Below, piece after piece: positions 9,014 through 10,946 of a stretch of DNA of 48,743 nucleotides. Location: the UHGV virus genome UHGV-1373020; one strand, 5' to 3'. Positions within the stretch are counted from its first letter, which is position 1, and the number at the start of each line of letters is the position of its first letter. Source of the stretch: a virus. Both the position numbers and the translations under genes were made by a program. The notes below the pieces were generated by a model that had not been told where the DNA came from, searched no databases, and saw nothing but the letters and a program-made list of their open reading frames with translations.

Positions 9014-9235
9014 TTATCTGGCAAGAATCCACACATGCCTCAACGCAGAGAGAAATCTACCAACCCTTGTTTTCCTCTCCAAATTGACCAGATACATATT
9101 TGAAACTGAACATTTCGCTCCGTCACATATCATTGTTATTGCGTTTTTATTCCCATTTTTGAGCCTTGTGAACACAATCTCGCCCTGCCCGGTAAGACTT
9201 AGCGTATTACTTTCTTTGTTAAGCTTTATTTCCAT
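9014..9235 (-). CDS. hypothetical protein (73 aa), first gene of the - strand cassette
   Basis: The ATG at 9235 has a GAGGTG SD 6 nt upstream. Confidence 0.55.
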   Translation of the reverse strand: MEIKLNKESNTLSLTGQGEIVFTRLKNGNKNAITMICDGAKCSVSNMYLVNLERKTRVGRFLSALRHVWILAR

Positions 9236-9266
9236 CTTCATCACCTCACTCATCATTTGATGTAGA

Positions 9267-9295: not shown

Positions 9296-9339
9296 ACACC
9301 ATTGTGATAGAATTAGTCATTATTTGAACAGGAGGCAGA

Positions 9340-9618
9340 ATGAAACTATCGCAACGCGGCAAAGATACGCTTGGGATTGCCGACGCCGTGGATATATCGC
9401 CTTACATCACCACCGAAACAACGCAGAATCAGTTTGACGCACTGACAAGTCTCGCCACTGACATCGGCATTGACGTGTTTCGGCAGTCAACACTACTGAA
9501 GAAACACAATCTCCGCTGCTTCTCATGCGCTGTTGCGCATTTCATCGTGTGGGGTGAGAAGACTGGCGACAAAGCAAAACGCAAAGCTGAAAAAGAGGTT
9601 TACTGGTATGGTTATTAG
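9340..9618 (+). pseudogene. internally deleted remnant of a GH24 (P22 gp19 / T4 e-type) lysozyme
   Basis: The 92-aa product keeps the C-terminal signature TQNQFDALTSL..IG...F.QST.LKK.N, but the 40-50 aa holding the catalytic Glu-Asp-Thr triad are missing. Its 3' end overlaps the start of the R-type endolysin. Confidence 0.5.
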
Positions 9619-10072
9619 CAAAAACATGAAAGCGTTTTTGGATATGCTGGCGTACAGCGAGGGAACCGATAACGGGCGACAGAAAACCAATAATCATGGC
9701 TATGATGTGATTGTTGGCGGCTCACTATTTACCGACTATTCCGACCACCCACGCAAGCTGATTAGCTTGCCAAGGCTGGGCATCAAATCCACTGCTGCCG
9801 GACGGTATCAGGTGCTGGCTAAGTTTTATGACGCATACAAAAAGCAATTACGCTTGCCGGACTTCTCCCCCGCATCGCAGGACGCTATTGCAATGCAGTT
9901 AATCCGTGAATGCAAGGCTACTGCGGATATTGAGGCTGGTCGCATTGCTGATGCTATCCATAAGTGCCGCTCGCGCTGGGCATCATTACCGGGTGCTGGT
10001 TATGGTCAACATGAGCAAAAGCTGGATAAGCTGATTCAGGTATACAAGGATGCTGGCGGGGCTGTGGCATGA
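9608..10072 (+). CDS. R: endolysin, lambda R-type lytic transglycosylase
   Basis: MVISKNMKAFLDMLAYSEGTDNGRQKT.NHGYDVIVGG.LFTDYSDHPRK... is near-colinear with lambda R as recalled, including the catalytic Glu in AYSEGT. No signal-anchor is present. Confidence 0.85.
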   Translation: MVISKNMKAFLDMLAYSEGTDNGRQKTNNHGYDVIVGGSLFTDYSDHPRKLISLPRLGIKSTAAGRYQVLAKFYDAYKKQLRLPDFSPASQDAIAMQLIRECKATADIEAGRIADAIHKCRSRWASLPGAGYGQHEQKLDKLIQVYKDAGGAVA

Positions 10073-10308
10073 AAAAGCTAAGCAACTGGCTGCTCGGGGC
10101 GTGGATTTCGTTCTGTTCACTGTTGCAGCTATGGCCTGATGCAATGATGCACGTATGGGTGATGATGCCTGATGACCTGAAAGCAGCGCTACCACCAATC
10201 GTGGTCAAAGGTGTGAGTTATTCAATCATGCTGGTTGGCATTCTCGGTAAGATGCACGGCATGAGAAAGGAAAACCGGAAGCTGCGCAATGATGTCGATT
10301 CTCGCTAA
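10069..10308 (+). CDS. putative holin (two TM helices, basic C-terminus)
   Basis: Two hydrophobic helices followed by the tail KMHGMRKENRKLRNDVDSR. It lies between the endolysin and Rz, which is a non-canonical order. Confidence 0.5.
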   Translation: MKKLSNWLLGAWISFCSLLQLWPDAMMHVWVMMPDDLKAALPPIVVKGVSYSIMLVGILGKMHGMRKENRKLRNDVDSR

Positions 10309-10786
10309 ATACTGGCGACCTCTGGCAATTATTATAATTATTGCCACTGGCGCGCTGTGGGCAGCCAATAAAGTGTCCAGCTATGGCGAACAGCAATATG
10401 CCGCTGGATATGCAAAAGCAATCGCCGAACAGAAGGCCGCAGATGAACAAGAGGGGCAACGACGCAATGCGGAACTGCAAAAGATTCAGGCCGACGCACA
10501 GCAAAGGATTGATGCTGCGCGCAATGATGCTGCTAACGCTGCTGCTAAGTCTGGCAGGTTGCAGCAACAACTTGCAAACATCCGCAAGCAGCTCGTCGGA
10601 TATTCCACCGCTGAGTCCATTGGCAATCCAGCCGCAGAAACCGGAGTTTTGCTTGGAGACGTGCTCACAAAGTCTGTCGAAAGAAATCGACAACTGGCAG
10701 ATTATGCTGACAGGGCAAGAGAGGCAGGATTGACGTGCGAGGCGCAGTACAACTCATTGAGAGCGAGAAATGCTAAGCAGAGATAA
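10289..10786 (+). CDS. Rz: i-spanin, Rz-like
   Basis: N-terminal TM, then a coiled-coil periplasmic domain rich in A/Q/R, like lambda Rz. Confidence 0.8.
   Translation: MMSILAKYWRPLAIIIIIATGALWAANKVSSYGEQQYAAGYAKAIAEQKAADEQEGQRRNAELQKIQADAQQRIDAARNDAANAAAKSGRLQQQLANIRKQLVGYSTAESIGNPAAETGVLLGDVLTKSVERNRQLADYADRAREAGLTCEAQYNSLRARNAKQR
10512..10733 (+). CDS. Rz1: o-spanin lipoprotein, Rz1-like, embedded +1 in Rz
   Basis: Lipobox LSLAGC, a Pro-rich product, entirely inside Rz in another frame, with an AAGGA SD. Confidence 0.75.
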   Translation: MLRAMMLLTLLLSLAGCSNNLQTSASSSSDIPPLSPLAIQPQKPEFCLETCSQSLSKEIDNWQIMLTGQERQD

Positions 10787-10918
10787 GCGAAAAAAGTATG
10801 ACAAGATGGCGTCTGATGTGGCGAGTGGTCGCGCTGGTTATCAGCCTGCGGTGAAATGCAAGCTAAGCAAATCACCAAAGAAATGCTACGGAAAGCCGCC
10901 TGAATCACTGCAATAAAT

Positions 10919-10946
10919 AAAGCCCCGTAATGGGGCTTGCGTTTAA
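10919..10946. terminator. bidirectional hairpin terminator
   Basis: AAGCCCC-gtaat-GGGGCTT with a flanking A-run and T-run. Confidence 0.55.

Follow-up and report, generated by a model that had tools for sequence, protein, structure and literature searches.

The UHGV virus genome UHGV-1373020 (48,743 nucleotides, referred to here as the window and examined at 7.5-12.5 kb) contains at 9340-10786 a compact plus-strand lysis operon, the first gene of which (9340-9618, plus strand) encodes a 92-aa protein that reads as a domesticated pseudo-lysozyme kept by purifying selection rather than as a relic. Lysis cassettes of phages of Gram-negative bacteria usually comprise a holin, an endolysin and a spanin; here, a fourth conserved protein, lysozyme-derived and predicted to be catalytically dead, heads the operon. 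The genes follow one another in the order pseudo-lysozyme, R (a lytic transglycosylase of the family GH104), a DUF7940 holin and Rz with an embedded Rz1, and minus-strand genes lie on both sides. Our comparisons show that the short protein descends from the GH24 endolysin once resident in this slot and suggest that it has retained some function; we put the probability of this lineage and of a retained function, taken jointly, at roughly 0.7.

The operon belongs to a virulent siphophage of the Skatevirus/Akiravirus type. At the DNA level it shows 86-91% identity to numerous virulent siphophages infecting Salmonella, E. coli, Shigella and Klebsiella, from the genera Akiravirus, Shuimuvirus, Skatevirus and related ones, including Akira, IME207, Sf11, C1, swi2 and the BASEL phages Bas77-79. 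This phage group is widespread and includes candidates for the biocontrol of Salmonella, E. coli and Shigella as well as BASEL isolates. All elements listed by a first-pass annotation of the window, made by a model from the letters without database searches, are present where it had placed them.

The short protein corresponds to the C-terminal lobe of a GH24 lysozyme

The 92-aa product matches the Pfam family PF00959 (Phage_lysozyme) with 40.2 bits at a cut-off of 22.3, the match covering residues 19-78 of the product and only positions 55-114 of the 125 in the profile. Solved GH24 endolysins from the Protein Data Bank (PDB) match it with E-values down to 1e-9, again through their C-terminal halves only, e.g. 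P22 lysozyme (2anv) through residues 67-126. Compared with P22 gp19, T4 e and the intact enzymes encoded at the same place in related phages (see below), about 52 residues are missing, including the FEG motif with the catalytic Glu as well as the Asp and the Thr, and two smaller deletions have removed 4 aa from the linking helix and 6 aa (KVMNGL) near the C-terminus. The N-terminus MKLSQRG is the same in the short form and in the intact enzymes, and the main deletion was thus internal and in frame, with a junction near codons 8-12 (9361-9375) that joins a remnant of the GH24 helix A to the C-terminal lobe. These deletions were mapped from protein alignments instead of nucleotide alignments; when a nucleotide-level breakpoint was sought against intact GH24 genes, the sequences beyond the first 27 nucleotides turned out to be too diverged for a junction or microhomology to be called. 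The first-pass annotation had described this open reading frame (ORF) as the C-terminal half of a GH24 lysozyme that had lost the Glu-Asp-Thr segment through an internal deletion, and both statements stand. It had set against them the possibility of a distinct, small family, which is largely true as well, PHROG 10457 (95 positions) aligning to the product over its full length; by descent, the protein is nevertheless a truncated lysozyme.

The AlphaFold2 model of the product (predicted local distance difference test score 96, predicted template modelling score 0.88) is a single all-helical lobe with helices at residues 5-11, 29-42, 44-48, 51-57, 61-75 and 78-90, and the two-lobe fold with a substrate cleft is absent from it. 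The best matches of the model found by Foldseek in the PDB are GH24 endolysins, with template modelling (TM) scores of 0.7-0.82 when normalized to the query and 0.31-0.49 when normalized to the targets, i.e. the model covers only a part of them. As the alignment to the best match, 7m5i, has 151 columns spanning almost the whole target, the N-terminal helix of the short protein would superpose on helix A. In T4 lysozyme, helix A (residues 1-12) is in structural terms an element of the C-terminal subdomain, which folds autonomously (bioRxiv 10.1101/353649); the deletion in the window and its closest counterparts (subtypes A and B, see below) would thus have taken the N-terminal subdomain and left roughly this unit.

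The short form is about 50% identical to the syntenic GH24 enzymes over residues 19-88, and dead and intact syntenic forms have the motif KHNxxCxxCA in common, with the CxxC of the pseudo-lysozyme (C60/C63) encoded at 9517-9528. The pattern H56-x3-C60-x2-C63 is invariant in all dead and intact syntenic GH24 proteins of the phage group and absent from the P22/T4-type enzymes, and might constitute a redox or metal site.

Judged by its sequence, the 92-aa product is incapable of the mechanism known for GH24 muramidases. GenBank records nonetheless name the short gene 'endolysin' or 'lysozyme' (the former in more than 100 database records), some annotations counting two endolysins ('endolysin (x2)'), and the same gene family has been expressed as a second endolysin from sister phages, namely as 'lysin2' of swi2 (PMC8185280) and as one of LysWL59/LysWL60 of LPST10. 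In the swi2 study, both 'lysins' were produced as trigger-factor fusions and each gave about 1 log of killing of E. coli, the 62-kDa size of one fusion fitting the 92-aa protein (PMC8185280); reviews cite LysWL59 and LysWL60 as two endolysins active on chloroform-treated cells, one presumably being the short form, although the reviews leave unclear which. These reports treat the short protein as an active muramidase and make no mention of the missing lobe, its origin or its conservation. The swi2 effect was, however, small (0.01<P<0.05), independent of EDTA and equal for both fusion proteins, and the authors found no domains in the protein, the truncation going unnoticed (PMC8185280). Considering also that the N-lobe with the catalytic Glu, Asp and Thr is gone and that the cleft Asn is not conserved, we think it highly improbable that the protein is truly a second, muralytic endolysin. 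The point is of practical relevance, since the version of at least one phage, and apparently that of a second, has been produced as an antibacterial enzyme despite the missing catalytic lobe. Our literature search found no paper describing a dead lysozyme fragment as a conserved component of a lysis cassette. The databases already list the gene under a misleading name; what it is, how it arose and how it is constrained seem not to have been described so far.

Intact GH24 genes occupy the same slot in related phages

We surveyed 69 loci from IMG/VR, using the holin as an anchor. About 35 of them have the arrangement of the window, i.e. the short ORF followed by R, the holin and Rz, and 27 carry an intact GH24 gene of 144-149 codons that ends on the holin start, with no R; in three, a PF11860 muramidase fills the endolysin slot. 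An intact GH24 gene together with R, or R without the short ORF, was encountered in none of the 69. The intact-GH24 arrangement also exists in cultured isolates, such as Klebsiella phage KlebP_265. Searches of isolate records retrieved R at an identity of at least 80% in 143 of them; by tblastn, the short ORF was matched without interruption in 139 at an identity of at least 80%, and in one more at 54%.

In the loci with intact GH24, the gene sits in the same slot behind the same promoter-like element, and is followed by the same holin family and Rz/Rz1; moreover, the short ORF of the window agrees with the intact gene of one such locus (L085) at 25 of the first 27 coding nucleotides. Synteny, the common upstream region and the same first codons indicate that the short ORF derives from the resident GH24 endolysin, the 92-aa product having arisen by internal deletion and R being an addition. 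The short form has a homologous C-terminal lobe in common with GH24 phage lysozymes at large, and the slot, the first codons and the CxxC with the KlebP_265-like enzymes; it differs from them in the three deletions, in the loss of the cleft Asn and in a new Y[WY]YGY tail (YWYGY at 9601-9615 in the window). The endolysin replacement proposed by the first-pass annotation is borne out by this comparison with related phages, a comparison that it had itself called for.

The cassettes with the PF11860 N-acetylmuramidase upstream of a 91-aa DUF7940 holin (L107, 1923-2504 and 1520-1915, as well as L108 and L109) have a further peculiarity: ahead of the muramidase lies a 131-aa protein that has a hydrophobic segment, matches no family and may act as a second holin or as an antiholin.

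The added endolysin R

R (9608-10072, plus strand, 154 aa) aligns end to end with the lambda lysozyme (3d3d/1am7, E=1.7e-61, residues 3-153 against 4-153 of 3d3d), including the catalytic Glu18 (9659-9661) in AYSEGT, which corresponds to AWSEGT of lambda. It was identified by a sequence search of the PDB and by PHROGs (phrog_90, endolysin); Pfam gave no significant match for it. Like lambda R, it is predicted to be soluble, with no signal or signal-anchor-release segment, a non-hydrophobic N-terminus and a maximum 17-residue hydropathy of 0.63, and would thus need the holin for its release. Unlike lambda R, it precedes its holin and is found in a non-lambdoid virulent siphophage. The R proteins of the phage group are at least 80% identical to each other (143 records) and the next relatives, from rV5-like, Ralstonia and lambdoid phages, reach 64-71%; R of the window is 66-70% identical to R of lambda, HK97 and rV5-like phages. 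It was not taken up recently from any known lambdoid phage.

As the first-pass annotation had noticed, the last codons of the short ORF overlap this complete gene: the stop of the former (9616-9618) lies beyond the ATG at 9608, the overlap being 11 nucleotides, and a Shine-Dalgarno-like AAGAGG for R (9593-9598, plus strand) lies in the 3' end of the pseudo-lysozyme gene. Codons 72-88 of the latter have a lower dS than the core (0.27 against 0.51), in keeping with a further constraint at the nucleotide level. Since R starts inside the last codons of the upstream gene, the two are probably coupled in translation, at least partly. The R frame is +1 relative to the short ORF and open from 9533, and a programmed frameshift fusing the two was considered; this idea was dropped, no slippery-site analysis having been made, as R matches lambda R from its own ATG and has its own Shine-Dalgarno sequence.

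Dead forms with a different endolysin and a full-length dead form

A profile search of 1.84 billion proteins, with follow-ups, uncovered a third subtype (C) besides subtypes A and B. It comprises four proteins of 90-98 aa (P0050, P0199, P0200 and P0201) and is followed (loci L119, L122 and L123) not by R but by a 171-aa muramidase with GH108 and PG_binding_3 domains, and then by a DUF7940 holin. The downstream start overlaps the stop of subtype C as ATGA. In L119, the upstream region, the holin, Rz and Rz1 are essentially as in L041, a phage with intact GH24. Subtype C was not found in the IMG/VR search.

The same search yielded a dead form of full length, P0202 (147 aa), in which FEG is changed to YYP, WTIGYG to WRIGYG and YNIG to YCIG; the catalytic Glu is thus replaced by Tyr with the N-lobe still present. 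Its C-terminus is the same as in the short forms, and a GH108 gene follows. All dead forms have in common the Y[WY]YGY tail, which is absent from the intact enzymes, as well as the CxxC and the deletion of 6 aa. A neighbour-joining analysis of 73 columns recovered the bipartition uniting subtype C with P0202 in 182 of 200 replicates and that of the intact syntenic enzymes in 190 of 200. Subtypes A and B keep the original start and subtype C has two other N-termini, which suggests that the N-lobe was probably lost more than once, after catalysis was gone. No second full-length dead form was found; one metagenome scan with P0202 as the query returned three loci at 46-59% identity, which were not examined further.

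These observations can be accommodated in a scenario in which an acquired endolysin, GH104 in the window and GH108 in subtype C, would have taken over catalysis, the old GH24 protein would have lost first its catalytic residues and then its N-lobe, through different deletions in subtypes A/B and C, and the C-lobe would have been kept for a non-catalytic function. All stages are still sampled among present-day genomes: the intact enzyme, the full-length dead form and the differently truncated C-lobes.

Most of the other short GH24-like proteins that we inspected in the 1.84-billion-protein library look like N-terminally cut fragments and were set aside. P0067 (L128, 3001-3297), a 98-aa P22-type lysozyme of a lambdoid prophage, has lost its catalytic region through a comparable internal deletion; it sits between the holin and Rz with no replacement endolysin, and looks like ordinary one-off decay, in contrast to the conserved dead family. 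P0096 (L121, 120-425; 101 aa), from an unrelated metagenome contig where the neighbours have no family matches, joins a start resembling helix A to a GH24 C-lobe, and its SLTADIGID motif is similar as well.

Conservation of the short ORF and purifying selection

Each of the 45 orthologues of the short ORF that we extracted is intact, begins with ATG and is 92-93 codons long. Pairwise ratios of nonsynonymous to synonymous substitution rates (dN/dS), computed by the Nei-Gojobori method, give 0.114 in subtype A (561 pairs, mean dS 0.36), fall to 0.062 in residues 29-71 and amount to 0.14-0.16 between subtypes. The corresponding values are 0.078 for the matching stretch of the active syntenic GH24 genes, 0.035 for R, 0.13 for the holin and 0.29 for Rz (which contains Rz1), and the C-lobe and tail of subtype C give 0.05-0.23 at dS 0.5-1.1 (four sequences). 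Variable sites are distributed over codon positions 1/2/3 of the short ORF as 29/18/73, and subtypes A and B, although only about 54% identical in protein sequence, are of the same length and have 34 invariant residues (six-sequence alignment, the most divergent at about 53-55%). Judging from these figures, purifying selection on the short ORF is as strong as that on the holin and close to that on the C-lobe of the active enzymes. We dismissed the possibility that the constraint comes from an overlapping gene, since the only ORFs that run across 9340-9618 in the other frames have 37-55 codons and the bias towards third positions agrees with the 92-aa frame.

The hallmarks of a decaying pseudogene, i.e. 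frameshifts or stops and a dN/dS near 1, are thus not seen in this gene, two rare variants with compensated frameshifts (see below) aside; it instead combines homology to an enzyme, loss of the catalytic residues and purifying selection, as a pseudoenzyme does. The words 'relic' and 'frozen intermediate', by which the first-pass annotation had characterized it, do not agree with the 45 intact orthologues, its presence in about 140 isolates, the purifying selection and its persistence next to a GH108 partner.

One could object that a functionless remnant, encoding an inert peptide, is merely kept open to deliver ribosomes to R by translational coupling. Both the ATG (9608) and the Shine-Dalgarno sequence of R lie inside the short ORF, and the stop-start overlap recurs in subtype C with a different downstream gene. 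Two metagenomic variants are also of note here: P0029 (residues ~72-86) and P0033 (~55-86) run through compensated frameshifts into R-frame sequence and return to the original frame before YWYGY, i.e. before the R start; they could be tolerated variants or assembly errors. Such a role in cis would constrain the frame and not the residues, however, and yet dN/dS is 0.11 (0.06 in the core), the variable sites are skewed to third positions and 34 residues are invariant; furthermore, conservation of the Y[WY]YGY tail extends to subtype C, in which the start of the next gene lies outside the tail. We therefore consider this explanation very unlikely.

Another objection is that the protein, as the product of the first gene of a late operon, is unavoidably abundant and has been selected only to fold well and be harmless, with no positive function. 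The strong Shine-Dalgarno sequence, the promoter-proximal place and the compact, autonomous fold would be in keeping with this, but a deletion of the ORF that puts R on the ancestral start was never seen among the ~35 surveyed loci and ~140 isolates, the C-lobe of the active enzyme is constrained to the same degree, and the new conserved tail together with the persistence across an exchange of the partner looks like gain or retention of function. To us, a protein selected for harmlessness alone seems a rather improbable explanation.

Possible function of the pseudo-lysozyme

In the working model that we propose for the window, the short protein would be translated efficiently from the ancestral start region, the DUF7940 protein would make holes in the membrane, soluble R would cross it and cleave the glycan strands, and Rz/Rz1 would disrupt the outer membrane. 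A specific partnership of the short protein with R was considered and rejected, as subtype C pairs with GH108. Given that the catalytic partner is interchangeable (GH104 or GH108), an accessory role exerted through peptidoglycan or a constant partner in the cassette is favoured. Tentatively, and at somewhat less than even odds, we regard the C-lobe as a putative accessory lysis protein that would be released with R and bind peptidoglycan or a constant partner, i.e. the holin or a spanin, and not the exchangeable catalytic enzyme. Small soluble accessory lysis proteins encoded beside endolysins are represented by the Ms6 Gp1 chaperone, the Mu gp25 releasin (PMC9239132) and T4 RIII. The short protein resembles them in being a small cytoplasmic protein of a lysis cassette, encoded directly upstream of the endolysin gene and overlapping it; it differs in that no kinship with them is discernible in sequence or fold, in that none of them is lysozyme-derived and in that the role proposed here is putative.

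A bolder version of this idea, which we hold to be doubtful, is that the dead C-lobe with its Y[WY]YGY tail represents an undescribed class of non-catalytic cofactor needed by cassettes with DUF7940 holins, e.g. for the timing or completion of lysis by way of the holin, the spanins or the cell wall. If true, such a dependence would explain why the endolysin has been exchanged (GH24, GH104, GH108) with the C-lobe kept.

The protein might instead have been co-opted outside lysis, e.g. against a host factor or for the exclusion of other phages; where it sits in the operon would then be a historical accident. A hint in this direction is a weak NCBIfam match to the localization factor SpmX, the muramidase domain of which (6h9d) is also among the fold matches, and the residues of the old cleft are not conserved. 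SpmX of Caulobacter and Asticcacaulis offers a precedent, in that a GH24 domain of phage type serves there in localization and neither in lysis nor in catalysis, but it has the whole two-lobe domain within a large bacterial membrane protein, whereas the protein discussed here is a free 10-kDa C-lobe; we see a parallel, not membership in the same family. Against a role outside lysis speaks the strict linkage of every subtype to a catalytic endolysin gene that it overlaps, always beside a DUF7940 holin. No match to anti-defence terms was found either, PADLOC not having been searched. On balance, co-option outside lysis seems unlikely to us.

Several observations weigh against a domesticated pseudo-lysozyme with a function in lysis, or against particular parts of this interpretation. 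The full-length dead intermediate P0202 is known from a single contig of 1,088 bp, and the monophyly of the dead forms is supported only moderately (bootstrap 125/200 on 73 columns). The pairs compared for dN/dS are not phylogenetically independent, and the frameshifts in P0033 and P0029 suggest that some variants may tolerate loss of the fold with the ORF kept open. The residue corresponding to the substrate-contacting Asn of YNIG is not conserved in the dead forms (D/S/A/C), which argues against peptidoglycan binding through the old cleft. Finally, the subtype of the short ORF does not track the holin or Rz allele and recombines freely with the holin, Rz and R alleles, e.g. in L045-47, where subtype B occurs with an R 93-96% and a holin 83-97% identical to those of the window; this argues against a tightly co-adapted pair of proteins.

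If a lysis function were to be confirmed, the domesticated pseudo-lysozyme would be a new accessory component of phage lysis and a clear natural case in which an enzyme became a pseudoenzyme once its catalysis had been replaced. The question of its function is directly testable in cultured, genetically tractable phages.

Holin and spanins

The holin candidate (10069-10308, plus strand, 79 aa) is a DUF7940 protein (PF25612, E=1e-9; phrog_13249 'holin', E=1e-51) with an ATG that overlaps the stop of R as ATGA. It has a strong transmembrane domain at residues ~39-61 (hydropathy 1.87) and a basic C-terminal tail; a further segment at ~6-22 remains below the hydropathy threshold of 1.3 but reaches 1.46 in the L041 homologue. 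The first-pass annotation had rightly placed a holin candidate with a basic tail between R and Rz and had noted that no holin precedes the endolysin in the plus-strand cassette, the genes immediately upstream being on the minus strand; of the two transmembrane helices it had credited to the protein, one is strong and the other weak. It had regarded the position of the holin after the endolysin as a peculiarity, which it is not, since our survey indicates that this is the ancestral order of the whole phage group: the holin lies directly 3' of the endolysin in 66 of the 69 loci, the three weakest matches being partial or broken ORFs, and, wherever the gene content was resolved, between the endolysin and Rz/Rz1. 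In PRD1, too, the endolysin precedes the holin, and equivalents of Rz and Rz1 follow. As that phage and its proteins are unrelated, this only shows that the order is not unprecedented. The swi2 homologue of the holin, expressed as a trigger-factor fusion, had no visible effect, an uninformative result (PMC8185280).

Rz, an inner-membrane spanin of 165 aa (10289-10786, plus strand; DUF2514, E=6e-30; phrog_312, Rz-like spanin), has its N-terminal transmembrane domain in a hydrophobic segment at residues 1-31. Rz1, an outer-membrane lipoprotein spanin of 73 aa (10512-10733, plus strand; phrog_11621, Rz-like spanin, E=1e-35) with the lipobox LSLAG|C, is encoded wholly inside Rz in the +1 frame, just as had been described before, and the pair corresponds to an embedded two-component spanin. 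An equivalent Rz1 is annotated in phage IME207. In about a quarter of the relatives (L003, L005, L007, L008, L016, L018, L021, L028, L031, L034, L035 and L046), Rz starts ~130-190 bp further from the holin. The extra DNA in IME207 (L003, 3547-3753, gp19) contains a 68-codon ORF between the holin and Rz that has no counterpart in the window; its C-terminus RLRNDVDSR repeats the tail of the window's holin, and in IME207 the holin gene thus seems to have been split at its 3' end by the insertion.

Expression signals and flanking regions

A promoter-like extended -10 element, TGATAGAAT (9305-9313, plus strand), lies upstream of the operon, and the block CAATCTACGTCAA...TGATA(G/A)AAT is kept 5' of the short ORFs and of the intact GH24 genes of relatives alike. 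A consensus promoter scan found no full sigma-70 site on the plus strand upstream of 9340, and the reading of TGATAGAAT as a promoter derives from this conservation. The Shine-Dalgarno sequence of the pseudo-lysozyme gene, AGGAGG (9330-9335, plus strand), is 4 nucleotides before its ATG at 9340, and the relatives have equivalent GGAGG or GAGGAG elements. Upstream, the nearest genes (9014-9256 and others to the left of it) are minus-strand genes.

A 48-codon basic ORF (10770-10916, MLSRDKRKKYDK...), which overlaps the Rz stop and may not be a gene, is situated between the end of Rz and the downstream hairpin. The hairpin itself (10920-10938), G+C-rich and retrieved by a scan for terminator-like sites, is placed where the lysis operon meets convergent minus-strand genes; its T-run is on the minus strand, and its tail on the plus strand is weak. 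In several relatives, HNH homing-endonuclease genes are present within a few kb of the cassette at varying positions (L002, 4997-5509; L045, 6898-7410; L119, 1964-2488; L123, 5091-5567), and could promote the exchanges of modules seen at the lysis cassette.

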